Shown here piece by piece: positions 21,771 through 52,628 of a DNA stretch of 64,000 nt (positions are counted from its first letter, which is position 1; every line of letters begins with the position of its first letter). The position numbers and the translations under genes are program-made. This DNA comes from an archaeon (GTDB taxonomy: Archaea > Iainarchaeota > Iainarchaeia > Iainarchaeales > JAAZKV01). The notes under the pieces were generated by a model. The model made no database searches and had not been told where the DNA came from. It was given only the letters and a program-made list of their open reading frames with translations. The stretch is from the NCBI GenBank assembly GCA_041661245.1, contig JBAZUY010000001.1, positions 156,355 through 220,354 of the forward strand, written 5' to 3'.

Positions 21771-21791
21771 ACAGGACTTTACCCCTTACCG

Positions 21792-21850
21792 GCAAAACGC
21801 TTGTGTTTTGGATAAACCCACCTACCCCTGGCAAAACGCTTGTGTTTTGC
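21792..21850 (+). promoter_or_regulatory. Two copies of inverted repeat GCAAAACgcttgtGTTTTGC plus motif copies and TATA-like CTTTAAATA upstream of the radical-SAM gene
   Basis: Read directly: the inverted repeat occurs at 21792-21810 and 21831-21850. Confidence 0.5.
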
Positions 21851-21903
21851 ACCGGCAAAACACTTCCTCTGCTCTTTAAATACCAAAAAATAACAACTAA
21901 TTC

Positions 21904-23250
21904 ATGATTCTTGAGAAACTACAAAAACTAGGAATGGCTGCTAGTTACGATTCATGCGGGGGAGGAAAAGAAAAATCCTTTAGAGAATATGGAATACCAT
22001 ATGAGTATCAAAATTTTATTTACAATTGCACACAATCAAGTGAAAATGTATTCACAAGAAAAGTAATGAATAGTGCAAATAAATCAAATTTAAGGAACAC
22101 AAAACTCTATGAGAAGCAAGAGGTTACAACTCAAGATAAAAAAGAGTTGTGGGGCAAAATGTCAAAAGTTCTTCCAACTTCAAAAAGAGAAGAACTAAAC
22201 AAACCCAATAAGTGCTTACTAATGAAAGTACTTCAAGACAATACCTGTGTTCATGATTGCAATTATTGTGTTAACACTACTTGCAAACAAAAAGTCAGTC
22301 TTGAACCAAAAGAACTAGCTGATTCATTTGAATACTTATGGAAGAATGGATACACAACAGGATTATTTCTTAGCAGCGCAGTACACGGCACACCCGAACT
22401 CAGCACTGAAAAAATGATTGCAAGTACGCGCTTACTCCGCGAAAGAGGATACAAAGGATACATTCACATGAAAGTACTCCCTGACACACCGGATTATTTA
22501 ATTAAAGAAATGGCACTTTATGCAAACAGACTATCAATCAATATTGAATCAACTACCACTCAAGGCTTTGAAGAAATCACTACAACAAAAAACTACAAAG
22601 AAGGAGTATTAAGAAAAATTAATACGCTTGATTTGATTAAGAGGAAAGTTGATCGTGAACAAAACAAAAACGCAGGTTGGTTTTGTGACAATGACCAAGT
22701 AGAAAATGGAACTGATATGCGATTCAAGTCATTTACTACCCAAATAATTATTGGTGCAAACGAAGAAACTGATCAAAACATTTTAGATAGAATGAACTCA
22801 CTCTACGAAGAAACTCAACTCTATAGAACCTACTTCTCCGCTTTCTCCCCAGTAGAAGGAACTGCATTTGAGAAAAGAAAAGCTGAAGACAAAACACGCG
22901 AACATAGATTGTATGAGACTGATTGGTTGTTCCGAGTGTATGGATTCACGAAAAAAACAATTGAAAGTGGACTTAATGAATATGGAAATCTTCCCCGAAC
23001 ACAAGATGTAAAGGAAAGCATTGCGATTGCGAACAAACAACTCTTTCCACTTGACCTTAACTCTGCAACACGAGAAGAACTCTTACTCGTGCCAGGATTT
23101 GGACCAAAAACTGTTGAAAAAGTACTACAAGTACGCGAAGAAAAAAGAATAAGAGAATTTACTGATCTGCTTGAAGTCGGAGTAAGAATCTCAAAATCAA
23201 AAAACTATTTGAATATTGAAGGAAAACAATCAAAACTAACTTGGTACTAA
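21904..23250 (+). CDS. Radical SAM protein with C-terminal helix-hairpin-helix (putative DNA modification/repair radical SAM family)
   Basis: CxxxCxxC motif CVHDCNYC; C-terminal HhH LLLVPGFGPKTVEKVL. Architecture is radical SAM plus a DNA-binding HhH. Confidence 0.65.
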   Translation: MILEKLQKLGMAASYDSCGGGKEKSFREYGIPYEYQNFIYNCTQSSENVFTRKVMNSANKSNLRNTKLYEKQEVTTQDKKELWGKMSKVLPTSKREELNKPNKCLLMKVLQDNTCVHDCNYCVNTTCKQKVSLEPKELADSFEYLWKNGYTTGLFLSSAVHGTPELSTEKMIASTRLLRERGYKGYIHMKVLPDTPDYLIKEMALYANRLSINIESTTTQGFEEITTTKNYKEGVLRKINTLDLIKRKVDREQNKNAGWFCDNDQVENGTDMRFKSFTTQIIIGANEETDQNILDRMNSLYEETQLYRTYFSAFSPVEGTAFEKRKAEDKTREHRLYETDWLFRVYGFTKKTIESGLNEYGNLPRTQDVKESIAIANKQLFPLDLNSATREELLLVPGFGPKTVEKVLQVREEKRIREFTDLLEVGVRISKSKNYLNIEGKQSKLTWY

Positions 23251-23275
23251 GATTTATTCAAAAACCACACACTAT

Positions 23276-24190
23276 TCAAATCCCGCTTTGGGATAATAAT
23301 ATCGCACCAATTACCATGATTCCAATAAAAAGTGCTTTTTGAAGAATAGATTGCTTAGAAATATTTTCCTTCCCCAACCAAGGCGCAAACAAAGTAATCA
23401 ACACGCCAATGGATAAAATGAAAAATGGCTGAAACCCATTCACAATTGAAACTAAGCCAAGCGGAGCAAGGAGAGTAACAAAAGAAAAAAGAAATGCAGC
23501 TAAGATGTTAATTATTTCATTAAAAATATTCAAACCCAATACTTTCCCAGAGTTCTTTTTGAAAACCGCAAAAAACTGTTCGCGATATTGCTTTTTTAGA
23601 AGTAATAAAAGCCCAAAAAGGAAAAATCCTATTTGTTCCCAAAACAGAGTAGTAAAAAAATCTGTTTGAACAGCAACATATTTTAGAATCACATAACTTA
23701 AAGCAATTAAAAAAGAAGCAAACAACATATATGCCAAAACTTTTTTGTTAAAGTGCAATTTTCTAGAGATAAAATTAGTTGAAAGTCCAAACGCACCAAA
23801 TACAATTAACGCACCAGCAACTAATTGCAACCCTGATAAACTTTCCCCCAAAATCAAGAAACTTAAGATTACTCCAAACACCGGAATTGATTGAAAAATT
23901 GGAACAACTTTTGAGGCCTCATCAAGCTTAAGCGCCCAAAAATAAGGAAACATGTAAAGAATGTAAATAAAACCTACAAAAATCATTACAAGTGCGTAAA
24001 ATAAAGAAATCGAGAAAACTGCAGGGTGAATTAAATAAATTACAGGGAGAGTCAAAAGACTAATAAAACTTGAGAACAAAATTAATGCCCCAGTTTCACC
24101 CTTAAAGTAGCCATCAATTAAATATTTGTCAATTCTATTACTAAGCGCAAAAAGAAACGGAGGAATCAATGCAAGCCAAAGCCAATCCAT
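23276..24190 (-). CDS. Polytopic membrane transporter (EamA/DMT-like)
   Basis: About 10 predicted TM helices; 304 aa. Confidence 0.5.
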   Translation of the reverse strand: MDWLWLALIPPFLFALSNRIDKYLIDGYFKGETGALILFSSFISLLTLPVIYLIHPAVFSISLFYALVMIFVGFIYILYMFPYFWALKLDEASKVVPIFQSIPVFGVILSFLILGESLSGLQLVAGALIVFGAFGLSTNFISRKLHFNKKVLAYMLFASFLIALSYVILKYVAVQTDFFTTLFWEQIGFFLFGLLLLLKKQYREQFFAVFKKNSGKVLGLNIFNEIINILAAFLFSFVTLLAPLGLVSIVNGFQPFFILSIGVLITLFAPWLGKENISKQSILQKALFIGIMVIGAILLSQSGI

Positions 24191-24289
24191 AATAAAAGAA
24201 AGAAAACTTCAATTTTTAACTTTGTGGTATTAAAAAATATGTCCAGGAAATAGTGCCCTTCGAGATAATTTAAAAAGTACAAAGTAGTA

Positions 24290-24910: not shown

Positions 24911-24939
24911 AAATAAAGAGCTTAAAATAAAAAAAAGCA

Positions 24940-24986
24940 TTGGCTTAATTAGGCCAACACTTTCGTACTCGCAACTATGCGAGTAC
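24940..24986. terminator. Two hairpins between convergent genes, likely bidirectional terminator
   Basis: Hairpins TTGGCttaattagGCCAA and GTACTCGCAactaTGCGAGTAC (9-bp stem) between convergent genes, flanked by A/T runs. Confidence 0.45.
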
Positions 24987-26141
24987 TTTTGCTTCAGCCT
25001 TTAGTTTATCAGCAAGATCTGTTTTTTCCCAAGTGAAATCAGGATCATTTCTTCCAAAGTGACCATAAGCAGCAGTCTTTCTATAAATTGGTCTTCTTAA
25101 GTTCAATCTATCAAGAATGTCTTTTGGTTTAAGTGGGAAATACTTTCGCACTAAAACAACTATTTTGTCTTCAGAGATTGTATTTGTCCCAAACGTATCA
25201 ACAAATATTCCTGTAGGTTCAGCAACTCCGATTGCATAAGCTAATTGAACTTCACATTTAGTTGCAAGCCCTGCAGCAACAATATTTTTTGCAATATACC
25301 TTGCAGCATATGCAGCACTTCTATCAACTTTAGTTGGGTCTTTTCCAGAGAAAGCTCCTCCTCCGTGTCTACCCATCCCACCATAAGTATCTACAATTAT
25401 TTTTCTTCCAGTTACACCAGTGTCCCCTTCAGGCCCACCAATAACAAACTTCCCAGTTGCATTAATGTGAATCTTTGTATCCTTGTCAAGCATACTGCCG
25501 CAAACAGGAGTGATAACCTTTTCAAAAATGTCTTTCTTTAGTTGAGCCTCAGAAACTATTTCTAAGTGTTGTTGTGCAATAACAACTGCCTCAATTCTTT
25601 TTGGTTTACCATCATCATATTCAATAGTAACTTGAGTTTTTCCATCAGGACCAAGATCTTTTATGATACCTTTTTTTCTCACTTCAGCAAGTTTCATTGC
25701 TAATTTATGCGCAAGCATTATTGGTAATGGCATTAATTCAGGAGTTTCATTGCAAGCAAAACCAAACATCATTCCTTGATCTCCAGCACCCTGTTCTTTG
25801 TTTGAAGATTCATTAACTCCTTGAGAAATGTCAGGAGATTGACCATGTAAAGAAACCCAAACACCAGCATCTTCCCCATCAATTCCAAATAAAGGATTAG
25901 TATATCCAATTTCTTTTAGCACAGTTCTTGCAACTTTTTGCACGTCAACGTAACCTTTAGTAGTAACTTCTCCAGCAACGTGAATTGATCCTGTTGTAGT
26001 TAAAGTTTCAACAGCAACTCTTGAGTAAGGATCTTGTTTTAGTAATTCATCAAGCACTCCATCTGAAACTTGATCACAAATTTTATCAGGGTGTCCTTCA
26101 GTCACACTCTCTGATGTAAAAAAATATTTCTTCTGTTCCAT
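24975..26141 (-). CDS. metK: S-adenosylmethionine synthetase, bacterial/eukaryotic MetK type
   Basis: N-terminal [22 protein letters not shown] is the canonical MetK signature; 388 aa. Confidence 0.9.
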
Positions 26142-26734: not shown

Positions 26735-26804
26735 AAAGATTATTAATGCCCTCTAAAACACCCCCAAACACTAAATATAAATAGACTAAATCCCAAAGAT
26801 AAAC

Positions 26805-27240: not shown

Positions 27241-29208
27241 TTAAGGACTCTTTTTTTGCATAAGCTCTTTTTGCATTGAAGATATTTGGTCTCTTAATGC
27301 AATTGCCAGTTCAAAATCAAGTCTTTCTGCAGCAGCACGCATTTCAACTTCTAGTTGAGTAACAAGTCTTTCTTTTTCTTTATTAGGAATATGCTTTGTA
27401 TCCTTAATTATAATGCTCTGCTCTTCAATTGCTTTAATTATTGTTTTAGGAGTAATGTGATTCTTCTTATTATATGCTAATTGAATTGTTCTTCTTCTAT
27501 TTGTCTCAGCAATAGCTTTTTGCATTGAATCCGTATTTTTATCAGCGTATAAAATTACTTTAGAAGTAGAATTTCTCGCAGCCCTCCCAATAATTTGAAT
27601 CAAACTCTTCTGGTCTCTTAAGAATCCTTCTTTATCAGCATCAAAAATAGCAACAAGCCCAAGCTCAGGAATATCAATTCCTTCTCTTAGTAAATTAATT
27701 CCAACTAAAACATCAAACTTTCCTACTCTAAATTGCCTAATAATTTCACTTCTATCAAGGGTTTTAATTTCAGAATGCAAGTATCTTGCCTTAATTCCCT
27801 TTGAAGCAAAAAAATCCGCTAACTCTTCAGCAAGTTTTTTTGTTAAAGCAGTTACTAAAACTCTATTTCCTTTCTTTATTACTTCATCAATTTCTTTTAG
27901 CATATCTTCCATTTGCCCTTTTGTTCCCCGCACTGTAACTTCAGGATCTACAAGTCCAGTCGGCCTAATGATTTGTTCAACAAAATTCTTTGAAACCAAG
28001 CGTTCGTATTTATCAGGAGTTGCACTAACAAAAACAACATTTTGTTTGTTCAAATACTCCTTTTCAAATTCACTAAACTTAAGCGGCCTATTATCAAGTG
28101 CACTTGGAAGTCTGAATCCATAGTCTACAAGAGTTTGTTTTCTTTGTCTATCTCCATTATACATTCCATTAAGTTGTGGAATTGATTGGTGAGATTCATC
28201 AATTACAATCAAAAAATCTTCTCCAAAATAATCCATTAAAGTATAAGGTTTTTCCCCTTCCGCTCTTTTATCAAAATGTCTTGAATAATTTTCAATCCCT
28301 TTACAAAACCCAAGGGTTTTCATTAACTCAAGATCATAATTTGTTCTTTGTTTTAATCTATGCGCTTCAATTAAACCCAGTTCTGGAAGTCTCTTGTCAA
28401 GTTCTTTTTTTATTGAATCCATCGCACTAATTGTTTCGCTTTCAGGAACAACAAAGTGACGGGCAGGAAATAAATGATAATGCGTCAAGCGTTGTAGAAG
28501 TGCATTAGTTTGTTTATCAAGAATATGAATTCTATCTATTTTATCCCCATCAAGTTCTACCCTTAGAATATTTCGCTCATACCCTGGGATAATGTCAATA
28601 ATACTTCCTTTTACTCTAAATCGTCCACTCATTAATTCTAAATCATTTCTCTCATACTGTGCATCAAGCAACTTTGACATTAATTCGACCCGAGGAAAAT
28701 TCATTCCCTCTTCAAGTTCAAACCCCATCCCCAAATAGTTCTTTGGATTACCCAACCCATAAATGCAAGAAACACTTGCAATAACAATAACATCATTTCT
28801 TGATAACAGAGAAGTTGTTGCAGAGAGACGCATTCTTTCAATATATTCATTAATTTGAGAATCCTTCTCAATGTATTGATCAGTTGAAGGAATATAGGAT
28901 TCAGGTTGGTAATAATCATAAAAAGAAACAAAATATTCCACTCGATTATTTGGAAAAAAAGCTTTGAACTCATTGTATAATTGAGCTGCAAGAGTTTTGT
29001 TGTGCGCAAGAACTAAAGTTTTCTTTTGCACATTTTGAATTACATTTGCTATTGTAAAAGTTTTTCCTGAACCCGTAACTCCTAAAAGAGTTTGGGGAGA
29101 TTTTCCTGTTTTGATTCCTTTAGTGAGTGAATCAATTGCCTCTGGCTGAGAACCCGCAGGCTTAAAACTCGAAACAAGTTTGAACTTGTGCTCTTCAACT
29201 TTTTGCAT
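27241..29208 (-). CDS. uvrB: Excinuclease ABC subunit B (UvrB)
   Basis: 655 aa. N-terminal F-K-L-V-S-x-F-x-P-x-G-x-Q-P..A, helicase motifs GSGKTF, DESH, QIIGRAAR, C-terminal UVR coiled coil. Confidence 0.9.
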   Translation of the reverse strand: MQKVEEHKFKLVSSFKPAGSQPEAIDSLTKGIKTGKSPQTLLGVTGSGKTFTIANVIQNVQKKTLVLAHNKTLAAQLYNEFKAFFPNNRVEYFVSFYDYYQPESYIPSTDQYIEKDSQINEYIERMRLSATTSLLSRNDVIVIASVSCIYGLGNPKNYLGMGFELEEGMNFPRVELMSKLLDAQYERNDLELMSGRFRVKGSIIDIIPGYERNILRVELDGDKIDRIHILDKQTNALLQRLTHYHLFPARHFVVPESETISAMDSIKKELDKRLPELGLIEAHRLKQRTNYDLELMKTLGFCKGIENYSRHFDKRAEGEKPYTLMDYFGEDFLIVIDESHQSIPQLNGMYNGDRQRKQTLVDYGFRLPSALDNRPLKFSEFEKEYLNKQNVVFVSATPDKYERLVSKNFVEQIIRPTGLVDPEVTVRGTKGQMEDMLKEIDEVIKKGNRVLVTALTKKLAEELADFFASKGIKARYLHSEIKTLDRSEIIRQFRVGKFDVLVGINLLREGIDIPELGLVAIFDADKEGFLRDQKSLIQIIGRAARNSTSKVILYADKNTDSMQKAIAETNRRRTIQLAYNKKNHITPKTIIKAIEEQSIIIKDTKHIPNKEKERLVTQLEVEMRAAAERLDFELAIALRDQISSMQKELMQKKSP

Positions 29209-29267
29209 AAGTAGTACTTCCTATAAGAGATTTAAAGAACTTTCTAGAGCAATTTGCCGGGCGATTT

Positions 29268-30835: not shown

Positions 30836-31528
30836 TTATTCCTTACCTAAATCAGTAGTCCCCAAATAATCCCTTAATAAAACTGGAAGTAATTTACTTT
30901 CAGCTTTTCGCAAATGCTCCTGGTAAGCTCTTCTTTTCATTCTATTTTTTTTTGCAAGTGCATCCAGTGTTGCCCCTCTTGGCCAAGAATAATATTTTTC
31001 ATTAACTGCAAATCGTAATGCATCAGTTTGTTTTTCTGTCAAAAAATCTTTTTCCATTTCTGGGGCCACATCCCCAATTCTTGTTACTTTCAAGTCCCCT
31101 ATTTCATGAAGTTCTTTAAGGACACCTTTTAGACTTTTGAAATCAGTTGTAATAATTGAATGAACATCAACCCCCCCTTTCATTTCAGGAGGCTTAAATA
31201 ATAATGCGCCACTTGCAATTATTTCATCATAACTTGAAGTAGGAACTTTAACTTTAATCATTGCAAGAGTAGTATTTGCCTGACTCTTAAGCAACTCAAC
31301 ATCAACTACTGCGGAATGTTTCTTTAATTCTGAGAAAAAAGCACTCACTTGTTTTTTACTTTCCCCAGTAACATTAATCAACGCCAAATATCCATTTTTG
31401 CCAATACTCTTTCTTATGAATTTCATGGAAACAAGTTTCATTACAAGCCCAGGATAATTTTCTGTAACCTGACTAAAACAGTCATGGTGAAAAATACTCA
31501 AATCAAGAACCTTAACATCTGAATTCAT
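30836..31528 (-). CDS. HTH_10 (bacterio-opsin activator/Bat-type) family regulator
   Basis: C-terminal LTEKQTDALRFAVNEKYYSWPRGATLDALAKKNRMKRRAYQEHLRKAESKLL is the HTH_10 pattern. Sits immediately upstream of uvrC-uvrB. Confidence 0.6.
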   Translation of the reverse strand: MNSDVKVLDLSIFHHDCFSQVTENYPGLVMKLVSMKFIRKSIGKNGYLALINVTGESKKQVSAFFSELKKHSAVVDVELLKSQANTTLAMIKVKVPTSSYDEIIASGALLFKPPEMKGGVDVHSIITTDFKSLKGVLKELHEIGDLKVTRIGDVAPEMEKDFLTEKQTDALRFAVNEKYYSWPRGATLDALAKKNRMKRRAYQEHLRKAESKLLPVLLRDYLGTTDLGKE

Positions 31529-31563
31529 ACTAAACTTGATTTTTGTAATTGTTTATAAAATAG

Positions 31564-31577
31564 TGACATACGTCACC
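31564..31577 (+). promoter_or_regulatory. Palindrome GTGACatacGTCAC in the divergent HTH_10 / LivJ-like SBP intergenic region
   Basis: Perfect 5-bp inverted repeat about 50 bp upstream of both start codons. Confidence 0.35.
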
Positions 31578-31623
31578 CACGGGGTAATATCCCTCCGACA
31601 GGGAAGGTTACTTGTGGTGATTT

Positions 31624-32769
31624 ATGAATAAAAAAATAGTAATCGGAGTAATAATAATTTTAGCAATAGTATTAGTAGAAGGGGCAGTAGCAATTAATTT
31701 CTCTTCAAGTACTGGACTTTTTGCCTTGCCCGCAGAAAAAGAAATCTTAATTGGAGTAATACAGCCATTAACAGGAAATGCAGCAAACTTTGGACAAAGC
31801 GGGAAAGCTGCGCTTCTTCTTGCACAAGAGGAAATTAATTCTAATGGAGGAATCAATGGAAATAAAATAAAATTAATTTTTGAAGACTCGCACTGTAGTT
31901 CTGAAGCAGCTACTACTGCTGCACAAAAATTAATTGAAGTAGACAGGGTAAGCGCAATTATTGGGGGAAATTGTTCCTCAGAAACTCTTGCAATTGCGCC
32001 TATTGCGGAGAAAGCAAAAGTGCTTGTTTTGTCAAACGGTTCTTCAAGCCCTGCAATAAGTGATTCAGGAGATTATATTTTCCGAGACTATCCATCAGAC
32101 AGTGTTTCTGGAAAAATAGCTGCAGAATATGCATACAATGTTCTTGGAGCTAGAAGCGCAGCAATTCTTTACTGGCAATCAAATTGGCCAATGGGAATAA
32201 AAAAAGTGTTTAAGGAAACATTTGAAAACCTTGGAGGAAAAGTTATTTTGGAAGATTCATTTTCTACCGGAAGCATAGATATGAAAACCCAATTAACAAA
32301 AATTAAGAATTCAAAAGTAGACGTGGTTTACTTTCTCGCAATGACTACTGAATCATTAACCGGAGTACAACAAGCCAAACAAATTGGTTTAGAAACACAA
32401 ATGATTGGGGGAGAACCTTGGGATGACCAAGCATTGTGGGACTCTGCAAAAGATGCCGGAGAGGGAAAAATATTTGTTGCTCCAAAAGCAAGTGAAAATG
32501 AATGGTTCATTAACGAACTAACCAAACAAAACACTCAAAACATTCCTGGTGCGGCACAAGCATATGATGCACTAAAAATAATTGCTAACGCAATTACAAA
32601 GTGCGGAACTAACGGAACATGTGAAAAGGACTACCTTTACGCAATGCCAGAATACAATGGAATAAGTGGGAAAATACAATTCGATTCAAAAGGAGATTTG
32701 AAAAATCCTCTATTCACAATAAAGAAAATAGAAAATGGAAAAATAATAGAAGTGGCTGACGCAAGTTAG
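31624..32769 (+). CDS. LivJ/LivK-type (type I periplasmic) substrate-binding protein, orphan
   Basis: IGVIQPLTGNAANFGQSGKAALLLAQEEINSNGGINGNKIKLIFEDSHC and later blocks match the branched-chain-amino-acid-binding family. No permease or ATPase nearby. Confidence 0.7.
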   Translation: MNKKIVIGVIIILAIVLVEGAVAINFSSSTGLFALPAEKEILIGVIQPLTGNAANFGQSGKAALLLAQEEINSNGGINGNKIKLIFEDSHCSSEAATTAAQKLIEVDRVSAIIGGNCSSETLAIAPIAEKAKVLVLSNGSSSPAISDSGDYIFRDYPSDSVSGKIAAEYAYNVLGARSAAILYWQSNWPMGIKKVFKETFENLGGKVILEDSFSTGSIDMKTQLTKIKNSKVDVVYFLAMTTESLTGVQQAKQIGLETQMIGGEPWDDQALWDSAKDAGEGKIFVAPKASENEWFINELTKQNTQNIPGAAQAYDALKIIANAITKCGTNGTCEKDYLYAMPEYNGISGKIQFDSKGDLKNPLFTIKKIENGKIIEVADAS

Positions 32770-32795
32770 CCATTTTTATTTATTTGAATTCAAAA

Positions 32796-33650
32796 CTATT
32801 TTTTGTTTTCTAATTTTTTCTTTTCTGTTAGGTGCAAATAGTTTTGATTAGTTATTGTACTTTTTCCTGTTTCGGTTTCAATTTCTTTTCTTGTATTGTG
32901 AGCGATTTCTCCCCCTCTTTTCGCTGAACTTTTTAATTCAGGCAATTCTTTTGCATCTCTTGCTTTCGTAATATCGGTTGTTGCTTTTTCTCCAACCATT
33001 GTGAAAATCAATTCCCAATCATTCATGTGATCTCGCAAGTTCTGGTTTTTCTTGGGCACGCTTTTGAATTCTTTGTATTCTTGCACTGTTTTTCCGAATG
33101 TTGCTTTAGTTATTTCGTTTGTTAAAATAGCAAAATCTGTTTCTTGTTTTACTCCTCTTTCTTTCCATTCATCAGTTAACTCTTGCCTTATCGCCATTCC
33201 CCTTAGTCGTTTATCTATCCACTCTTTTGGATAACCTTTGAGTTCATAGTATCCTTTTGCCCTGTTTTGGGCTAGTTCGGGGTTTTCTATTTCTTGTATT
33301 CTTTCATACCCTGTTTTTGCTAGCCATAATTTGAAAGGTTCAGCTTTTGGCGAAGGAATTGATTGGATTATTCTAAATGCACCTTCAGTATTAGCGCAAT
33401 TCATTTGTTGTTTGCCCCCAGCAGTATCAATCGGAAGGGTATGTACAAGTTGTACCCACCCTTTGCTAAGCTCTTCATCTCTTTCACGCATTCTGTTAAT
33501 ATACTGTTTGACATCAGTAGAATCAGTTAATGCAAAGACAATGTCTTCAAGCACAAACCACCATTCTTCCTTGTGCCAAGTTTTTCGTATTTTTTTTCCT
33601 TCAAAAACCGCTAAAGCATTTTCTTGATTCATTAAGTTCACTAATAACAA
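32796..33650 (-). CDS. Bro-N domain protein (phage antirepressor/DinD-like)
   Basis: N-terminal EWWFVLEDIVFALTDSTDVKQYINRM matches the Bro-N/AntA core (WF-V-DV--AL). Confidence 0.55.
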   Translation of the reverse strand: MLLVNLMNQENALAVFEGKKIRKTWHKEEWWFVLEDIVFALTDSTDVKQYINRMRERDEELSKGWVQLVHTLPIDTAGGKQQMNCANTEGAFRIIQSIPSPKAEPFKLWLAKTGYERIQEIENPELAQNRAKGYYELKGYPKEWIDKRLRGMAIRQELTDEWKERGVKQETDFAILTNEITKATFGKTVQEYKEFKSVPKKNQNLRDHMNDWELIFTMVGEKATTDITKARDAKELPELKSSAKRGGEIAHNTRKEIETETGKSTITNQNYLHLTEKKKLENKK

Positions 33651-33716
33651 CGCTAGTTAAAGAGTATAAAAACATTTGTGGAGTGCTTTGCCGGTGGTCG
33701 TAACCAATTTTTTATT

Positions 33717-34421
33717 TTAAGGTTTGGCAATCTTCCAAAGTAACCCAAAGTGTTTTCTAAACATGGAAGCAACTAGTTCTGAGCGGATTACTATCGCAAC
33801 CAGATTTGGTTCCCAAATATTGATGTTCACAGTATTCCCGTAAATGAATGTAGCAACTGGACCAGAAAATTCCTCCGAAACATACCGCAGTTCAGTAAAG
33901 TAGACAGGATTATTTCCTTTTTTAGTATAAATCCCATAATATGGAATTTTTTTGCTTTTCATTTCTCTTATCCATTTCTCTCCAAAAAGAGGCAATTTTT
34001 CTCTTAACTGCCCTTTAACCCCATATGCATAAATTGGTCTCCCAACTTGAATCATTTCTCTCCAGGCTGATTTCATTCCCTCAGGGCCTTTGTAAACTTC
34101 AACCAGTATTTCGCTCTTTTGAGATTTGAACAGATCCTGAAGTTCCGGCAAAAAAGTTCCCAATAACTCTTCTTTCTCTTTAATGAATGCATACAAATTA
34201 TTCGGATCAGATGCATGATACCGCGTAGTTTTTCCTTCCTTAAATATTGTCACAAGACCTTTTTCTCTCAACTGCTCAAGCACATCGTATATATTTGTTC
34301 TGTGAAATCCACATTCTTTTGAGATTTCCCTAGCAGTGCAATCATTTAGTTTCAGCACAGCATAGTACACCAAAGCCTCGGCTTTAGTTAATCCTAACTC
34401 CACTAATTTTTCTACACCCAT
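33717..34421 (-). CDS. TrmB-family HTH transcriptional regulator
   Basis: LTKAEALVYYAVLKLNDCTAREISKECGFHRTNIYDVLEQLREKGLV. Confidence 0.7.
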   Translation of the reverse strand: MGVEKLVELGLTKAEALVYYAVLKLNDCTAREISKECGFHRTNIYDVLEQLREKGLVTIFKEGKTTRYHASDPNNLYAFIKEKEELLGTFLPELQDLFKSQKSEILVEVYKGPEGMKSAWREMIQVGRPIYAYGVKGQLREKLPLFGEKWIREMKSKKIPYYGIYTKKGNNPVYFTELRYVSEEFSGPVATFIYGNTVNINIWEPNLVAIVIRSELVASMFRKHFGLLWKIAKP

Positions 34422-34498
34422 GACAAATTAATGCTGGCCCCTATTTTTAAAGTTGTCTATTATTAGACACACCTTGGATATATACCTCCTCTGCAGGA

Positions 34499-35359
34499 GT
34501 GTATATGGTGATGCCTCAAATGAACGCTAAATCAAAAACAATTCAGGACGGATACAAGATACGAAATGTTAGATATGAAGAAATCCATAATGTTCCCCAG
34601 GATTTTTTTGATACAATTGTAAAAGGGTTGAGTATAAAAAATGGGGACAATATAGGCGACCTTATGTCAGGGTATGGAGCAATTAGTAGAGAAGTATTAA
34701 AGTACGCTGAAAAAAACAAAAAGCGCATTGAACTATGGTTGCTAGATAACCATCTTGAACAACTCGACAGATCCCATGAGGAACTAGCGCATTGGGAACA
34801 CCCATCAAATTTACAACAATTGAAAATCCATCGAATCCATTCAGATGCGCGGTTTTCAAATGTACTCAAGGAAAATTCACTTGACCATGCAGTAATGAAA
34901 ATGGGGCTACACGAAATACCTCAATGCGATCAACAAGGCGCAGTGGATAATGCGTATAACTGGCTAAAAAATGGCGGAACATTAATGATTTGGGATCGAA
35001 TGGCAAGAAAGAAAGAAGACCAAGAATTATTTTCCAAAATAATTTCTGAAAAAGACCGCTTGGCAGGATTTGATAGTTTTGTAAAAAACAGGTATTTCTT
35101 TAGACTCGACGAAGGAATAGAATATATGAAAAAATCCGGATTTAAAGAAGTCAAGGTGTTCAAGGAGATATACTTGAACTTCACAAGCAAAGTTAGATTA
35201 CATACAGAATTTGGAGGAAACGAGAACACTCTCAAAAGCTGGAACGAATTTATTCGAGCAAGTGTTCCAGAAGCTATGAAAAAAAGATTAAAGTATCAGG
35301 ATAACGGAGATGACATAAAAATGGTTTTTGCAAAAGCAATAATTTGCGGAAAAAAATAG
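34499..35359 (+). CDS. Class I SAM-dependent methyltransferase-like protein
   Basis: Motif I-like IGDLMSGYGAIS; 286 aa. Confidence 0.45.
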   Translation: MYMVMPQMNAKSKTIQDGYKIRNVRYEEIHNVPQDFFDTIVKGLSIKNGDNIGDLMSGYGAISREVLKYAEKNKKRIELWLLDNHLEQLDRSHEELAHWEHPSNLQQLKIHRIHSDARFSNVLKENSLDHAVMKMGLHEIPQCDQQGAVDNAYNWLKNGGTLMIWDRMARKKEDQELFSKIISEKDRLAGFDSFVKNRYFFRLDEGIEYMKKSGFKEVKVFKEIYLNFTSKVRLHTEFGGNENTLKSWNEFIRASVPEAMKKRLKYQDNGDDIKMVFAKAIICGKK

Positions 35360-35371
35360 ACCAAGAATCGC

Positions 35372-38179: not shown

Positions 38180-38314
38180 ACCAAAACCACAAAACAGTGA
38201 CTTACTCGATTAGAAAGTACTTAATGCAATAGTTAATAAATAATTGGAGAGGAGTTTGCCGGAACAAAAATAGTAAGCAAAAAGAATTTAATACTCCCAA
38301 AGCATTAGATTAGT

Positions 38315-39292
38315 ATGTTTAAACCTAAACGAGCATCTATTCCAAGACTACTTTCAAGACAAATTACTGCTGGAAACAAGTTAGGCACAACAGGAGTTAA
38401 AGCTGGCACCGCCATTTGGGCAGGGGGAAGCGCTCTACTTTTGCAGCAAGCACACACTGCAAGTCAAAGTAACTTGCTCCCAGGAATTGGATTAATTGGA
38501 GCAATGGGCGGACGCGCACTAATGAAAGCATCAAGCAAAATGGAAACCGAGTTAAAAGAAAAAAACCTGCTTAAATTAATTGGAAAAAGAAGACTGGCGT
38601 TTGAAGTATCTCAAAAAACTAACGACCCACAAATGAGGTTATTCACCCTCCTAATAGCAAGCGCAAAAACACAATCAGAAAGAGAAATTCTAAAAAGAAT
38701 TATTTCTGGCGAAAGAACAACAGCCCTGGCCCCCGAATTAACAATCCTTGCAAGAAGAGTAATTAAACTAGAAAACTCACAACTAACAAAAGGATTCCAC
38801 AAAGAAATCAGATCAATACGCGGGATACCCCTAAAAAAACTTGATTTCCTAGCAAAAAAAATAATAGCTGAACTACAAGGAAATAAATTTAAAACACAAC
38901 AGGACTTCCAACAAAGAGTTCAAGAATACATTAACCCCTATGCACTATCGACCACAATGGATCGATTTGAAATAACAAATCCTTCATTTGGAAAATCATT
39001 TTTAAAACTCCAAAAAGCCCAATTTATCCGAACTATTCAACGAACAACAATAGCTAATCAGCGTACATTAAACGAATTGGCCCAAGACCCAATTTTACGC
39101 CAAATCAAAGAAGATATAACTCAATTAACGATAGACCAATTAGGTTCAGAAAAAAGAGCAAAGGAATTTTTAGATCACCATTCAAAGGTAACAACTCAAC
39201 TTGTAAGATACATTGAAGAAGAAGTCCATGTTGCAACACGTGTAGAAACAGCCAAAAGAATAATATTGGATCTGCGTTTATTAAAACTATAA
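38315..39292 (+). CDS. Hypothetical basic helical protein
   Basis: 325 aa. Gly-rich N-terminal segment; no motif. Confidence 0.45.
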   Translation: MFKPKRASIPRLLSRQITAGNKLGTTGVKAGTAIWAGGSALLLQQAHTASQSNLLPGIGLIGAMGGRALMKASSKMETELKEKNLLKLIGKRRLAFEVSQKTNDPQMRLFTLLIASAKTQSEREILKRIISGERTTALAPELTILARRVIKLENSQLTKGFHKEIRSIRGIPLKKLDFLAKKIIAELQGNKFKTQQDFQQRVQEYINPYALSTTMDRFEITNPSFGKSFLKLQKAQFIRTIQRTTIANQRTLNELAQDPILRQIKEDITQLTIDQLGSEKRAKEFLDHHSKVTTQLVRYIEEEVHVATRVETAKRIILDLRLLKL

Positions 39293-39336: not shown

Positions 39337-40305
39337 TTAAGCAGGAGTACTAACTTCCCAAAGAATTTTGTAAACCGCTCGCATAGAAGCAACTACTTCT
39401 TTGTTTTCAATCAAAATTGCCCCTGGCTGTTCCCCGACAGTGAAGAAACCCATTTTGTCCCCATAAATAAAAATAGTTGCTTTGAAAGTTGTAAGATTGA
39501 ATAAATAACGCACATTTCTTTTTCTTTCAGGTTCTGATTTATCATAAATTTTAGGAGTACTTTTTGAAGTAAAAATAACATTATGCCAAAATCCTTTCTC
39601 CACTCTTTTTGCAATAAAGTTTTGGATAAATAACTCTTTGAATAATTGCCCAAAAATATCATAATCAATAACAAAAAAAGTATCCTTTCCAACTACAAGC
39701 ATATCATCCCAAATACTTTTGATTCCCTTCATCCCAACAAAGGTCTTAACATTAAGAGAAGTTTTTGCCCCAATTGCAAGTTCTGCAAATTCAGGCATTG
39801 CGGCGGCTAAAAGTTTTTTCTTATTCTCAATCATTTGGAGCAAGACTTTTGGTTCAACCGCATGAAACACTTTAATGTTATCTGTTGTAGACTCAGCAAT
39901 TATTCCCCTCGCCATCATTTTATCCAAAATGTCATAAACGCTTTGACGTAAGATGTTTGTTTTCTTTGAAACTTCCGCAGCAGTGGCATGTCCAGTTTTT
40001 AGTAGTATTAAATAAATCTCAGCCTCCTTATTTGACAGACCAAATTCTTCGAGCACTTCCTTTAGTTCCATATTATTATTACTAGGGAGAATGTAATTTA
40101 TATTCTTATGCATGTGTCGCAATATTCCTACGACAATAACATAAGTACCACTTCCAAAGGGAGTTACTTTGGTGAGCACGAATATGAATGTAAAGACCAC
40201 AGTAATAGGAGTAATAGCATTAGTAGTGATATCGCTTCTTTTTTTAGCGATTTCACCAAACGCAACAGGTAACTTTGGAGTAACAGCTAGTAATGAGGAG
40301 AACAT
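39337..40305 (-). CDS. TrmB-family HTH transcriptional regulator (ORF as listed probably has a spurious N-terminal extension)
   Basis: LSNKEAEIYLILLKTGHATAAEVSKKTNILRQSVYDILDKMMARGII. Likely true start MELKEV... near 40068. Confidence 0.65.
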   Translation of the reverse strand: MFSSLLAVTPKLPVAFGEIAKKRSDITTNAITPITVVFTFIFVLTKVTPFGSGTYVIVVGILRHMHKNINYILPSNNNMELKEVLEEFGLSNKEAEIYLILLKTGHATAAEVSKKTNILRQSVYDILDKMMARGIIAESTTDNIKVFHAVEPKVLLQMIENKKKLLAAAMPEFAELAIGAKTSLNVKTFVGMKGIKSIWDDMLVVGKDTFFVIDYDIFGQLFKELFIQNFIAKRVEKGFWHNVIFTSKSTPKIYDKSEPERKRNVRYLFNLTTFKATIFIYGDKMGFFTVGEQPGAILIENKEVVASMRAVYKILWEVSTPA

Positions 40306-44835: not shown

Positions 44836-44919
44836 ACGCAGAGGCCGAGATTCGAACTCAGGTACCCTTTCGGATAACGGGTTAGTAACCCGCCGCATTT
44901 GACCGCTCTGCCACCTCTG
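44836..44919 (-). tRNA. Class II tRNA (Ser-type; discriminator G) with apparent anticodon ACU
   Basis: Reverse complement is GCAGAGG-TG-GCA-GAGCGGTCAAA-TGC-G-GCGGG-TTACTAA-CCCGT-[long variable arm]-CTGAG-TTCGAAT-CTCGG-CCTCTGC-G. The 7-nt loop TTACTAA places ACT at positions 34-36. No CCA encoded. Confidence 0.7.
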
Positions 44920-45108
44920 CTTGAAGACTTTCCGCCCCTTCAGGACCAAGTGAAACTTTTGTTTCACGGGTCAAGCAAAAGCCTTACTTTTGCTTTGACG
45001 TGTGCCCCCTCGCTTCGCTCGGTGACACTGATTTATTACAAATTATGCATTCACAGAGAATTAAAAACTTAACCAAAAACCTAATTCAAAAAAAAAGGTA
45101 GAATTTAT

Positions 45109-48878: not shown

Positions 48879-48986
48879 AAGTAAATTAACTTATTTTAAA
48901 CTTACAGTTCTAACTAACACCGGCAAAACACTTACTCCAATATTTATAAATTCTCAAAATAAGTTTCTTTTCAAGGAGGTATTTTT

Positions 48987-49307
48987 GTGCAAAAAGAGCA
49001 TGATTCATTATTGATTCAAAATGAATCATTTAAAAGTTCTTCGTTTCAGAGTAATAGTATGAACGTTGTCGTTAAAGGAGTTCCAAAACAAGTACTTGAA
49101 GAAATGCTTGCAAAAGGTTATGCGAGTACTCAATCAGAAGCCATTAGATTAGCTCTCTTTTGGTTTGGACAAAGCAGACTAAATTTAGACGAACTCGCAG
49201 CAAAAAAAATGGACAAACTTTATGCAGACATAAAAAGCGGCAAAAGAAAAACATACACTTTGAAGCAGATGGTACAAAAATACCCTGAATTCAAAGAGCT
49301 GATGTAA
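48987..49307 (+). CDS. Ribbon-helix-helix (CopG/Arc-type) antitoxin
   Basis: GTG start preceded by SD-like AAGGAGGT. NVVVKGVPKQVLEEMLAKGYASTQSEAIRLAL is an RHH pattern. Abuts the toxin gene. Confidence 0.55.
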   Translation: MQKEHDSLLIQNESFKSSSFQSNSMNVVVKGVPKQVLEEMLAKGYASTQSEAIRLALFWFGQSRLNLDELAAKKMDKLYADIKSGKRKTYTLKQMVQKYPEFKELM

Positions 49308-49562
49308 TTGTTTGAAATAATTCCTTCTGACGACTGGTATAAATGGTGGGATAAAGTTCCTCGCGAACAACACCAAAGAATAATCAAAAAAATGCACGAA
49401 CTAAAAGAGGACAAACAATTCAGACACTTAAAATTGGGTTCCCCCCACTTTGTGCTAGAAGCAGGACAATACAGAATACTTTTCATTGAAGAAGAGAAAA
49501 AACGAATACTTATTTTTGTTGGAAATCATAAGGACTATGAGAAATGGATTGGGATGAAATAA
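49308..49562 (+). CDS. RelE/ParE-family toxin
   Basis: 84 aa; TTG start directly after the antitoxin stop. ...FRHLKLGSPHFVLEAGQYRILFIEEEKKRILIFVGNHKDYEKWI fits the RelE/ParE beta-sheet core. Confidence 0.55.
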   Translation: MFEIIPSDDWYKWWDKVPREQHQRIIKKMHELKEDKQFRHLKLGSPHFVLEAGQYRILFIEEEKKRILIFVGNHKDYEKWIGMK

Positions 49563-49636
49563 ATTAATTCTTGCTTAAATTAATCTAGCAATCATTTCCA
49601 AAATCCTTTTGCAATATTATTAAATATTCACAAAGC

Positions 49637-50455
49637 GTGAGTAATTGTATGTACCGAACGAATAAGCACTTTGGATTAAAGAAGTTAAGAAAGATTGCTG
49701 GCGCTGACTCAAGATGGTTTGTAAGTCCTCACATTGTTTTAACTTCACCAGAGCAATTCAGAATGGCACAAACAAGAGGGAAGGCAAGACTACTTGTTCG
49801 AACTGATGAAGCGGGCAAAAAATATGATTACTTTATGCATGATTATATGCCCCGATTTGAAATACCAGGACCCACTCTATTTGGACAAATAGATAATCAA
49901 AAAGTTCGACTAGCTTCACTTGGAGAAAGAGAAATACAAAAAAGACTTGCCCAAGCAAAAGAAGATGCAAATATACAAAGATACCAAGGAAGACTTAGAT
50001 ACATCCTCCACCCAACAAGAAAACGCGAGGACATCGCTTGGACAGGACGAATACTAATAAGACAAGAAAGAGAAGTTACAAGGGACAAAAGAGGATTCAT
50101 ACAATTCCCCCAAATAGAAATAAGTCTCACAAAAAGCCCAAAACCTTATGAAAAACTCCACCGAAACCTACCCCCAACAACAGAATACAAACTAACATAC
50201 AAAGAAGGAAAATTCTCTCCAACAACACAAAACGCTCCCACAAAACTACAAAAAGAACAACAAAAACAAGCCACCCAAATCCTCACCCGACTCAAAGCAC
50301 TACTAAAAACAGGAGTTGAGTCAAACCAATTAAAACTCGGCCGAACAACCCAAATACATTTTATTTCTTGGAAAGAATCTCCTACTACCCTTGAGTTATT
50401 TGACTTAGAAGAAACACGAGGAGCAACACGAGTAAGAGTAAGAAGATTGAACTAG
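49637..50455 (+). CDS. Hypothetical basic protein
   Basis: 272 aa; no motif. Confidence 0.4.
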   Translation: MSNCMYRTNKHFGLKKLRKIAGADSRWFVSPHIVLTSPEQFRMAQTRGKARLLVRTDEAGKKYDYFMHDYMPRFEIPGPTLFGQIDNQKVRLASLGEREIQKRLAQAKEDANIQRYQGRLRYILHPTRKREDIAWTGRILIRQEREVTRDKRGFIQFPQIEISLTKSPKPYEKLHRNLPPTTEYKLTYKEGKFSPTTQNAPTKLQKEQQKQATQILTRLKALLKTGVESNQLKLGRTTQIHFISWKESPTTLELFDLEETRGATRVRVRRLN

Positions 50456-50540
50456 GGGGAAAATTTAGAAAGATAAGCGGAATTAGGAGTTTTGAACTGC
50501 GGTCTGCAGATTAATAAAGGACTTTGAACTTATACTAAGT

Positions 50541-51266
50541 ATGCCGGACGCAACCAAAATAGAGACTATTAGCGAACTTTTGAAAGCCGCCAAATGGCTT
50601 GAGGGAAAAACACTTGCAGAGATTTCAGATAGCATAAAAGACGAAGATTTTGTTCCAAGAGTATCATCAAAAGCTTATGTTGGATACGTTATTGAGAAAG
50701 GGTATTTTCAAATAGAACGAAACAATGATTCTAAACCAGATTTTCCCCAACTCGGAGTTGAATTAAAAACCTGCCCTTTAAAATATAATAAATCAAAAAC
50801 TAAGCTTACTGTTAAAGAACCGCTTTCTTTGAATATAATTAATTATAAGTTAGAATGTCAAAATACTGATTTAACTGAATCATCTCTATTTAAGAAAAAT
50901 AGAACTATTTTGTTTGTATTTTATATTCACGATTTTGAGAAAAAACGCTCAGAATATTTAATTAAATACACCTTTATCTGGCATATGGATAAACAAGTTA
51001 TTTCTGAGTTAAATCCGGATTATCTGAAAATAATCAAAATGATAAACGCAGGAAAAGCACATGAGATTCATCAAGACCAACATAAATATTTGACTATTTG
51101 CCCAAAACACGGAGGCAAATTCAAAGACCCTCTTTGCAAGAAATCAAAGACTACCCAACCATTTAGCAAAGCTCCTGCCGAAGTAAGGGCGTTTAGACTC
51201 AAAAATGCATATGTTGATTTAATAATTTCTCGAGAATTAGAAACAAATCCCTACTGGCCCCGTTAA
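50541..51266 (+). CDS. MutH/Sau3AI-family restriction endonuclease
   Basis: DFPQLGVELKTCPL closely matches the MutH catalytic block DFAALGVELKTIPV (D...E-x-K). Confidence 0.65.
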   Translation: MPDATKIETISELLKAAKWLEGKTLAEISDSIKDEDFVPRVSSKAYVGYVIEKGYFQIERNNDSKPDFPQLGVELKTCPLKYNKSKTKLTVKEPLSLNIINYKLECQNTDLTESSLFKKNRTILFVFYIHDFEKKRSEYLIKYTFIWHMDKQVISELNPDYLKIIKMINAGKAHEIHQDQHKYLTICPKHGGKFKDPLCKKSKTTQPFSKAPAEVRAFRLKNAYVDLIISRELETNPYWPR

Positions 51267-51301
51267 AGCTATTACTAATCCTCGTGTGTGATTTGTTAAT
51301 T

Positions 51302-52594
51302 CTATTCAGATTCAACAATTTTCAACAAGGTCTTACCAAGTTTTTCTATTACCCCAACAACCAACGCATTGCCCATCATAAAGTATCTCCATCGCAAAGG
51401 CATCCCACAGTCAGTCCATCCTCGAGGGAACTCGTTTAATGCCTCGCATTCTTCAGGAGTCAATAAACGCAACTTATTAGTTTTTGGATCCATTACCACA
51501 TGAGTAGATCGGTTCAAAGTGGCTTCGGAAGTAAGCATTGTCCTTGAAGGTAAGTTAAGATTATCCGGAAAAGCCATTCCCCCCTCGGCATAACTATATT
51601 CATGCCCACTTTTAGATTTACGATTAATCTTTTTAGCACCCTTAAGATAATTCCATTTTTCCAAACTTCCATTTATGAATAATTTATCAGGAACGACAAG
51701 TTTAGTTTCAGTTATTATTTCATGTAACGGTTTTTGCTTAGATAAAACTGGAAGTACCTTAATTGTTTCAACAACCCCTTTGGAATCCATAAACCCCGAA
51801 TTTTTGAAACTCGCTTCAAATTTATCTGAAACTGCTTTCAAATTCCCAAATGAACCTAAATCATAAGTTTCTCTAATGGACAAATCGGATTTTTCAATAT
51901 CAAATTGATTGATAAAAAATCCTTTCGATTTTATTACATCCACGTGAGATAATCCCGAAAGTTTTTTTGCATATGAAGTAGTTTTATTTGCAGCAAAAAT
52001 AAATGTTCGTCTTCTTCTTTGAGGGTGCCCGTACTCCGCGGCATTGATTACTCGCCACTCAACAACGTATCCCAACTCATTAAGGCACTTTAGAATTACT
52101 CCAAAATCCCGACCTCTTTGTTTTGCAGGAGATTTAATCAAACGATCAACATTTTCTAAAAGAACAAATTTAGGTTTTTTGCTTTCAATAATATCTCTTA
52201 TTGACCACCACAATACCCCTTTCTTTCCTTCAATTCCTTTCGCACCAGTTGTTGCAACTGAATAATCCTGACAAGGAAATCCACCAACCAACAAATCGTG
52301 ATTAGGAACATCTTTTTTTACTTTATTGATATCAGCACAAACAACAGTTGATTCTTTATTTGAAATGTGATTCGAGTCAAGTGATTTTTCAAAAAAATCT
52401 TTTCCAAAATAATTTTGAGTATAACATTGGAAAGCATATTGAGTCTGATGACTTTTACCCGGTTCCCATTGATTCGCCCAAATAGTTTGAAACACATCTT
52501 TTGAAGCCCTTTCAAAACCAAGTCGAAATCCACCAACACCGGCAAAAAGTTCTACAACTTTAATTTTACCTTTCATGATGATAAGAGGGATCAA
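51302..52594 (-). CDS. DNA (cytosine-5)-methyltransferase
   Basis: Motif I ELFAGVGGFRLGFE, motif IV GGFPCQDYS, motif VI ENV. Convergent with the endonuclease gene. Confidence 0.85.
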   Translation of the reverse strand: MIPLIIMKGKIKVVELFAGVGGFRLGFERASKDVFQTIWANQWEPGKSHQTQYAFQCYTQNYFGKDFFEKSLDSNHISNKESTVVCADINKVKKDVPNHDLLVGGFPCQDYSVATTGAKGIEGKKGVLWWSIRDIIESKKPKFVLLENVDRLIKSPAKQRGRDFGVILKCLNELGYVVEWRVINAAEYGHPQRRRRTFIFAANKTTSYAKKLSGLSHVDVIKSKGFFINQFDIEKSDLSIRETYDLGSFGNLKAVSDKFEASFKNSGFMDSKGVVETIKVLPVLSKQKPLHEIITETKLVVPDKLFINGSLEKWNYLKGAKKINRKSKSGHEYSYAEGGMAFPDNLNLPSRTMLTSEATLNRSTHVVMDPKTNKLRLLTPEECEALNEFPRGWTDCGMPLRWRYFMMGNALVVGVIEKLGKTLLKIVESE

Positions 52595-52611
52595 AAGCTT
52601 TTAAAACATTT

Positions 52612-52628
52612 GGAGAGTGTTTTGCCGG
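52612..52628 (+). promoter_or_regulatory. Recurrent motif GGAGAGTGTTTTGCCGG in the divergent MTase/52666 promoter region
   Basis: One of 7 instances of GGAG..GTGTTTTGCCGG. The others are at 48919-48937 (rc), 21852-21869 (rc), 21789-21800 (rc), 33680-33694, 38246-38262 and 29246-29263. Lies just upstream of the A/T-rich TATA-like box TTTTAATA. Confidence 0.5.

Follow-up and report, generated by a model that had tools for sequence, protein, structure and literature searches.

A conserved promoter-proximal element marks a putative DNA-repair and mobilome regulon in Iainarchaeota

We identified in a 64,000-nucleotide stretch of an Iainarchaeota genome (contig JBAZUY010000001.1, positions 156,355 to 220,354; hereafter, the window) a short sequence element that recurs directly upstream of the core promoters of DNA-repair and defense genes. 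The element is likely to be the recognition site of one sequence-specific regulator, whose putative binding would define a regulon of DNA-repair and mobilome genes with a presumed response to DNA damage. Judged by sequence comparison, the data establish a conserved, putative cis-regulatory element and the regulon predicted from it, which probably belongs to the DPANN lineage Iainarchaeota/Diapherotrites. The predicted regulon has a species-conserved core of radA, uvrA, uvrB (with a weak site), nurA at the head of the herA cluster, a gene for a family-B DNA polymerase (PolB)-like protein and a TIGR03916-like radical-SAM/HhH gene. Its variable shell comprises toxin-antitoxin pairs, DNA methyltransferases, a DinD/Bro-N-like gene, LAGLIDADG nucleases and TnpB. 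A preliminary description of the window had proposed a shared transcription-factor site that marks a DNA-repair and defense regulon, and this proposal is supported by the conservation of the element at the orthologous promoters of uvrA, radA, the radical-SAM gene, nurA, the PolB-like gene and a ribbon-helix-helix (RHH)/RelE pair.

The element and its promoters in the window

The octamer CCGGCAAA/TTTGCCGG is present in nine copies on the two strands of the window, compared to an expectation of 1.26 +/- 1.11 in 100 dinucleotide shuffles (maximum 5); because the shuffles give far fewer copies, a chance origin of the motif was ruled out. Seven of the nine copies are intergenic in a window with a non-coding share of about 8%. 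The two others are coding and unrelated, one (52539) specifying the F-A-G of C5-methylase motif I and one (34145) lying within a TrmB gene. All seven copies of the preliminary description were found in place, save for one slip in position (48919-37, which is 48920-48938), and an eighth, degenerate intergenic copy had been overlooked (CTGGCAAAACGC, 21828-21839). The seven copies and the degenerate one are spread over six intergenic regions. A position weight matrix scored eight sites at 20-25 bits, all of them intergenic, and every other match at 15 bits or less, all of them coding; this gap is circular for the eight training sites yet still informative on further weak intergenic sites, none of which the scan found in the window. 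The sites and the genes that they serve are as follows:

21789..21811, plus strand: distal unit 1 of the radical-SAM/HhH gene, CCGGCAAAACGC-TT-GTGTTTTGG, the motif and an inverted GCAAAAC arm
21828..21850, plus strand: distal unit 2 of the radical-SAM/HhH gene, CTGGCAAAACGC-TT-GTGTTTTGC, which includes the degenerate copy
21852..21882, plus strand: proximal motif CCGGCAAAACACTT (21852-21865), 9-nt spacer and TATA box TTTAAATA (21875-21882) of the radical-SAM/HhH gene
29229..29260, minus strand: weak motif CCGGCAAATTGCTC (29247-29260) and TATA box TTTAAATC (29229-29236) of uvrB, ATG at 29208
33665..33694, minus strand: motif CCGGCAAAGCACTC (33681-33694) and TATA box TTTTTATA (33665-33672) of the Bro-N/DinD-like gene, likely ATG at 33632
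38233..38262, minus strand: motif CCGGCAAACTCCTC (38249-38262) and TATA box TTTATTAA (38233-38240) of uvrA, ATG at 38179
48920..48950, plus strand: motif CCGGCAAAACACTT (48920-48933) and TATA box TTTATAAA (48943-48950) of the RHH-like/RelE-like pair
52599..52631, minus strand: motif CCGGCAAAACACTC (52615-52628) and TATA box TTTTAAAA (52599-52606) of the C5 DNA methylase, true ATG at 52576

Read towards the gene that it serves, the site has the form (A)CC(R)CCGGCAAAACACTC, followed by 9-11 nt, the TATA box and the gene. The proximal copies in this orientation read CCGGCAAA(ACAC)T-, then 9-11 nt, then the TATA box, an arrangement that is constant in the six window promoters; the distance of 9-11 nt from the end of the 13-mer to the TATA box also holds for the uvrA, radA, radical-SAM, nurA and PolB-like promoters of relatives. 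The extended site of about 20 bp is asymmetric, (A)CC(R)CCGGCA-A/T-rich-CAC-T-C, and abuts the TFB recognition element (BRE) on its upstream side. The site would be located at roughly -57 to -38 if transcripts begin 22-25 nt past the TATA box. Start codons stand 19-25 nt past the TATA box in several of the motif genes (21 nt for the radical-SAM/HhH gene, ATG at 21904), and this short distance indicates putative leaderless transcripts.

The site proved to be strictly oriented. Copies in either orientation had been described, yet every promoter-proximal site has a single one, with CCGGCAAA facing the TATA box and the gene. The GGAG that had been included in the motif corresponds to the complement of a C-N-C, only partly conserved, that lies between the motif and the BRE. 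We rejected a reversed reading (TATA box, GGAG, TTTGCCGG, with the motif between the TATA box and the transcript start on that strand) because the properly spaced gene lies across the TATA box at every site; on the far side of the motif, nothing is conserved beyond the motif itself. Only 6 of about 40 intergenic regions in the window bear the motif, so it is not a general core promoter element such as the BRE and TATA box of all genes. The housekeeping genes of the window (class-I tRNA synthetase, PPDK, MetK, a GTPase, a P-type ATPase and ABC transporters) are without it.

Sequence searches supported the identity of several of the genes served. UvrA and UvrB, as well as UvrC, were confirmed in the window by Pfam, NCBIfam and PADLOC, and the radical-SAM/HhH protein resembles TIGR03916 (3e-72, NCBIfam). 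Both upstream units of the radical-SAM promoter have the form CYGGCAAAACGC-TT-GTGTTTTGS, which is the motif plus an inverted arm. The Bro-N/DinD-like protein matches Bro-N (2e-13), PRK11525 DinD (4e-06, weak) and PDC-S13 of PADLOC (3e-106), a candidate defense family. The RHH-like gene (106 aa, GTG at 48987 with AGGAGG ahead) and the RelE/Gp49-like gene (84 aa, 49308-49562) form a pair with weak family matches. At the methylase promoter, the core is a palindrome, TTGCCGGCAA (52622-52631), with a second arm directed towards the divergent 52666 gene at a non-canonical spacing; one contig (L104; labels of L plus a number denote the contigs and loci compared) is identical to the window at this promoter.

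Conservation in relatives and wider membership

The closest genome records, archaeal MAGs, encode UvrA proteins 92% and 85% identical to that of the window, and records at 74% identity or less are labelled Woesearchaeota or Nanoarchaeota. Homologues at 80-86% identity bear the source names 'Candidatus ainarchaeum/Iainarchaeum' and 'Diapherotrites'. The motif precedes uvrA in six of six species (UvrA identity of 84-92%), and the upstream regions of the six align only at YYGGCR-N7, the 9-nt spacer, which is exact, and TTTATTAA. The radA gene was first met 3' of the motif in a metagenome contig (L134), and CCGGCA and a TATA box recur at the same spacing in three further genomes (4 species in all), with variation beyond CCGGCA (CCGGCAAGACACT, CCGGCACGGCACT, CCGGCAAAACGGC). 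The motif was also present at the radical-SAM gene of four species (window, L137, L128 and L175), at the RHH/RelE-like pair of three (window and orthologous pairs in L129 and L194), at nurA, the first gene of the nurA-herA cluster, in 3/3 genomes and at the diverged family-B-polymerase-like gene in 3/3 genomes. Five of seven species retain a weak uvrB core (NCGGCA or TTGGCA), and in L003, L004, L192 and L195 the GGCA stands at an unchanged distance. Across these orthologous promoters of related DPANN genomes, the flanks diverge while the motif persists.

The specificity of the element is apparent in the DNA of the clade as a whole. In 318 kb of clade DNA, consisting of loci retrieved through protein queries, CCGGCA-N7-N8-11-TATA occurs 17 times versus 0.7 in shuffles, and 15 of the 17 sites are at the repair promoters named above or at defense or mobile genes, including a LAGLIDADG gene. 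No site was found in these 318 kb at nrdD, thyA, SHMT, TGT, relA, TFE, tRNA synthetase or PPDK, nor does any of the genes beside radA (nrdD, thyA/thyX, DHFR, SHMT, dCMP deaminase, TGT, relA and TFE-alpha) have the motif. The preliminary description had raised the question of whether the motif also stands at unrelated genes and in relatives; the excess over shuffles and the neighboring housekeeping promoters without a site both speak for the regulon.

When metagenome contigs were scanned with CCGGCAAARCACT-N8-11-TTTWWAWW, 92 loci were retrieved; about 40 are on low-GC contigs and have the same promoter architecture. Conserved outside the search pattern were an A at -4, a C at -2, an R at -1 and a C at +13 and +15; thus, the site extends to about 20 bp. 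Also conserved in these promoters were an A-rich stretch at 17-18 and AAA 7-9 nt past the TATA box. The genes that follow the motif encode RadA, the PolB-like protein, a PIN toxin, RHH proteins, HicB-like antitoxins, two C5 methylases (including that of L171, named as a second C5 methylase), an N6/N4 methylase fragment (L184), four LAGLIDADG proteins, two TnpB, a nucleotidyltransferase-like pair and many small unknown proteins. No housekeeping gene follows the motif among the approximately 40 metagenome promoters. A scan of IMG/VR for a viral origin gave 13 matches, all in unrelated contigs (e.g., with a recurring P-loop-like coding context) and none with the motif-TATA arrangement, and this origin was rejected.

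The PolB-like protein (536 aa), which recurs 3' of the motif in the metagenome contigs, is a member of a family (about 490-550 aa, no Pfam domain) that is restricted to Diapherotrites (L146:9287-10897; L196-L198:10001-11635). Its gene lies between herA and rad50, near nurA, in three genomes. An AlphaFold model of the protein (pLDDT 85.8) matched 5mdn and archaeal family-B DNA polymerases in Foldseek (E 7.5e-12), and a sequence profile also linked it to family-B polymerases (E 7e-4). An H-x-N-K is aligned at the position provisionally equated with polymerase motif C (canonical D-T-D; the equivalence comes from the alignment alone). H-x-N-K in place of D-T-D at this provisional motif C suggests an inactivated or non-canonical, very diverged PolB2-like protein.

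Upstream of the proximal site, strong promoters carry one to three inverted-repeat units of the form GCAAAAC-N4-6-GTTTTGC, some with ACCAC outer arms. As in the radical-SAM promoter of the window, distal units composed of the motif and an inverted arm precede the strong motif promoters of L118, L127, L158, L126, L151 and L188. In L151, the unit is an inverted repeat, GCAAAACAG-TT-CTGTTTTGG, upstream of the motif promoter of a TnpB gene. Two different TnpB genes (IS200/IS605 RNA-guided nuclease) have motif promoters (L151:300-440 and L135:1696-1800). The strongest arrays (one or two upstream units and the proximal site) precede a module of about 270 nt (L118:1940-2330; also in L099, L127 and L158) that contains a 5' leader hairpin, a Shine-Dalgarno sequence (GAGGTG), a 25-codon open reading frame (ORF; MVGSRIIRFVECTGMRVPNFSYVKL), a conserved 3' region and a T7 run. 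The stem of the hairpin differs in sequence in four contigs, with its complementarity kept, and in four contigs the 25-codon ORF has mostly synonymous third-position changes, few conservative replacements and a stop codon in the same place. Rfam gave no match in the module or in related loci with the strongest arrays.

Mode of action, candidate regulators and known damage responses

The genes of the regulon parallel those of two described systems, the bacterial SOS regulon and the Orc1-2 regulon of Sulfolobus, from which we infer a response to DNA damage or genotoxic stress. Given a regulator site, we lean towards activation, rather than repression or a promoter class for a paralogue of a basal factor, because the site is upstream of the BRE, its spacing is rigid and its orientation single. 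The bound factor would contact or recruit TFB/TBP from the site abutting the BRE, and the inverted-repeat units (GCAAAAC-N4-6-GTTTTGC) suggest that binding further upstream may be dimeric or cooperative. The element had been described as an operator, a term that implies a block of the promoter. Directly upstream of the BRE is instead where archaeal activators usually bind.

A LexA-like logic, in which a repressor at the site would block TFB/TBP loading, perhaps in cooperation with the upstream repeats, and be inactivated after damage, is possible but doubtful. In its favor, TATA boxes are good and BREs A-rich at the core promoters, which have no evident need of help, and the perfect upstream palindromes (GCAAAACAG-CT-CTGTTTTGC and similar) resemble high-affinity operators. 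Many TATA boxes begin with G-TTTT, which could be a weak second half-site, and the gene content parallels the LexA regulon. However, the conserved site is clear of the TATA box and the start site, over which most characterized archaeal repressors bind, and rigid spacing with one orientation is more typical of factors that touch the basal machinery. Nor was a LexA/S24-type protein detected among the scanned window proteins or among the genes called at 11 related loci, a sample that amounts to only about 5-30% of any one genome. The strictly fixed orientation and spacing to the BRE and TATA box, together with the asymmetry of the proximal site, would also fit a promoter-class element that is dedicated to repair and mobile genes and recognized by a paralogous basal factor (an alternative TFB or TBP, or an accessory factor). 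TFB3, which reportedly acts downstream of Orc1-2 in the damage response of Sulfolobales, offers a precedent. We consider such an element quite unlikely, as extra copies and inverted repeats lie 24-120 bp upstream, away from any TATA box, and the site reaches about 20 bp past the BRE, beyond what TFB is generally known to read.

The element could also be a genuine regulator site whose regulon is not damage-responsive (constitutive, or tied to the cell cycle and DNA metabolism, another stress or virus infection). Many members are toxin-antitoxin, restriction-modification or selfish nuclease genes rather than repair genes, and the DinD-like protein matches a candidate defense family. Yet the members shared across species (radA, uvrA, uvrB, nurA-herA, the PolB-like and the radical-SAM gene) all function or are predicted to function in repair and recombination, the deoxynucleotide-synthesis genes by radA (nrdD, thyA, DHFR and dCMP deaminase) lack the motif and no replication gene was seen with it, all of which make a regulon of this kind unlikely. 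Far less probable still is a mobile promoter cassette or miniature transposable element, or a hairpin RNA or terminator, in place of a protein-binding site. Many sites do precede mobile or accessory genes (TnpB, LAGLIDADG, toxin-antitoxin), and the distal units can form hairpins of 7-9 bp, with complementary covariation at some arm positions. But the shared part is only about 20 bp and a TATA box between unrelated flanks, terminal repeats and target duplications were not seen, the motif occupies orthologous positions at core genes in up to six species and the proximal sites have no hairpin partner. Further, Rfam found nothing in the element, and a search for an RNA family or tRNA-derived sequence with Rfam and ARAGORN gave only three tRNAs, elsewhere in the window.

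Several observations weigh against a damage-responsive, activated repair regulon. Damage inducibility and the sign of regulation are both inferred. With a good TATA box and an A-rich BRE, the core promoters seem strong, as would suit either repression or activation. At uvrB the motif is weak, and L175 and L193 have lost it or retain a degenerate form. The uvrC and rad50 promoters are without the motif, and both genes were rejected as members. The scans covered parts of the genomes, and housekeeping members may be present elsewhere in them. Lastly, two biases of the metagenome set skew the shell: orientation and spacing were built into the search pattern, and accessory genes are over-represented on short contigs.

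The proximity of TrmB genes, noted in the preliminary description as a link to the regulator, is probably coincidental, as the motif is kept at the radical-SAM gene in L128 and L175, where hicAB replaces TrmB. The three TrmB paralogues of the window (20976-21770, 33717-34421 and 39337-40305) are mutually 25-30% identical and are divergent to an NMT1 gene, a Peripla_BP_6 gene and a methyltransferase gene, one each; the HTH_10 gene and one of the TrmB genes are divergent to periplasmic-binding-protein genes. In relatives, TrmB paralogues are divergent to NMT1/ABC transporter genes (L194:17086-19148 and L195:14668-18836). The divergent transporter and methyltransferase neighbors suggest that the TrmB paralogues may be local regulators of adjacent genes. 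The case by adjacency for a TrmB paralogue or the HTH_10 protein as the regulator is weakened by this divergent pairing with transporter genes and by the persistence of the motif without TrmB. The operator of the Thermococcales TrmB family, TGM, is TATCAC-N5-GTGATA. We rejected a motif for the TrmB gene at 20976, as the near-match there (CCGGCGAA at 20956) lacks a properly spaced TATA box. No Orc1/Cdc6 gene was present in any locus fetched; a possible likeness of the motif to origin-recognition boxes was considered, and an Orc1/Cdc6 paralogue as the binder would be an attractive analogy, albeit pure speculation.

As a functional analogy, the system resembles the bacterial SOS response in that one short element stands at uvrA, uvrB, a recombinase gene, a dinD-like gene, a TIGR03916-type gene, a translesion-type polymerase gene and toxin-antitoxin and mobile genes, with graded site strength (strong at the radical-SAM gene, weak at uvrB). 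It differs in its archaeal host with TATA/BRE promoters and in an asymmetric proximal site that ends 9-11 nt upstream of the TATA box, with palindromy in the distal units only. The site also has no evident likeness to the usual LexA boxes, and no LexA-like gene was present in the sequence read. Sulfolobales are not known to have bacterial-type uvrA and uvrB. Their damage regulon depends on Orc1-2, which binds an ANTTTC element within a promoter element of about 20 bp and induces Dpo2/PolB2 and recombination genes (PMC6061795). Both systems thus have an asymmetric archaeal element of about 20 bp near the core promoter, which in Sulfolobales mediates damage-responsive activation, and both include a family-B polymerase of the inactivated type (Dpo2/PolB2 there, a putative one here) and homologous-recombination genes. 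The elements themselves differ (AATAGTTTCRGWDTACTCWS, with ANTTTC, in Sulfolobales and the consensus ACCRCCGGCAAAACACTC here), as do the lineages (Thermoproteota and DPANN) and the gene sets, which here include uvrA, uvrB, toxin-antitoxin, methylase and homing-nuclease genes and no ups or ced genes that we could see.

A precedent for the route of discovery is the radiation/desiccation response of Deinococcus, a LexA-independent damage regulon that was first recognized from a motif at repair promoters. Its motif (RDRM) is described as the site of the bacterial repressor DdrO, which is removed by IrrE cleavage (PMC8533742, PMC5552922); no DdrO/IrrE-type pair was seen here. In geometry, the closest parallels are archaeal sites that lie directly upstream of the BRE and TATA box with constrained spacing and, at some promoters, multiple copies, which implies contact with TFB/TBP. 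Ptr2, EarA, TFB-RF1, GvpE and TrmBL1 act in this position, upstream of the BRE, on metabolic, motility and gas-vesicle genes. The motifs of the Ptr2/EarA type are different from that described here, and those factors are not known to be linked to DNA repair.

The argument that archaea lack LexA and that the regulon is therefore new holds in part. Our searches found no damage regulon described for DPANN or for an archaeal uvrABC, but that of Sulfolobales was already known (PMC6061795). Literature searches with the motif string returned only unrelated subjects (plant viruses, phage defense, mouse genetics), and those aimed at a damage regulon in DPANN yielded bacterial systems only. A damage regulon marked by a motif is a known kind of system; new are the element described here and the lineage, geometry and gene set that go with it. 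The class of mechanism is ordinary, but for archaea of an uncultivated lineage the finding is unusually clean and informative. Earlier UV-expression work in a few archaea was inconclusive on a transcriptional damage response (PMC6061795). A sharply defined cis element and core gene set in uncultivated, genome-reduced DPANN archaea bears on damage responses outside Sulfolobales, and the question becomes testable without genetics. A repair role becomes probable for two uncharacterized proteins, the Diapherotrites-specific PolB-like proteins and the archaeal TIGR03916-like enzyme. The data also suggest that mobile and defense genes in archaea tap a host stress promoter, in parallel to the SOS control of mobile elements. 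We hold it to be an evenly balanced prospect that a whole DPANN lineage (Iainarchaeota-like, with genomes of about 1 Mb) has a genuine SOS-like response, with a new regulator family and cis element that tie repair to selfish and defense genes. If so, the genes of toxin-antitoxin and restriction-modification systems, homing endonucleases and TnpB would have their expression coupled to bacterial-type nucleotide excision repair, archaeal recombination (RadA, NurA-HerA) and an inactivated-type PolB. Selfish and defense elements would also have repeatedly captured the host damage-response promoter, as prophages and integrons took LexA control in bacteria.

Neighboring genes and other observations

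The genes at 38315 and 52666, divergent from uvrA and the C5 methylase, respectively, had no match in Pfam, NCBIfam, PADLOC or PDB. They are at most candidate members of the regulon, because the motif and their TATA boxes are not canonically spaced. Their promoters resemble each other in one stretch (AGAWTTTAATACYC), located about 20-25 nt ahead of the ATG (window 38263-38314 and 52629-52665). Convergent with the C5 methylase is a gene for a Sau3AI/MutH-like endonuclease (window 50541-52576), and the motif is at the methylase promoter only. Methylases elsewhere also have the motif (L171 and L184), and no restriction endonuclease was seen carrying it. Directly upstream of the radical-SAM gene in two relatives is a hicB/hicA-like pair with its own motif promoter (L128:3490-3818 and L175:3475-3990), in the place taken by the TrmB gene in the window.

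An insertion of about 4.5 kb (window 30836-35371) separates uvrC from uvrA; close relatives have uvrA, uvrC and uvrB adjoining or nearly so. The insert contains genes for the HTH_10 protein, a periplasmic binding protein, the DinD/Bro-N-like protein, a TrmB paralogue and a methyltransferase. An S-adenosylmethionine synthetase of the bacterial/eukaryotic type, with three MetK domains (window 24975-26141), is kept in relatives L001 and L192. ARAGORN called a tRNA-Ser at 44837-44920 of the window with the unusual anticodon ACT, possibly a mis-call of the anticodon position, and a spurious ORF of 68 aa overlaps it.

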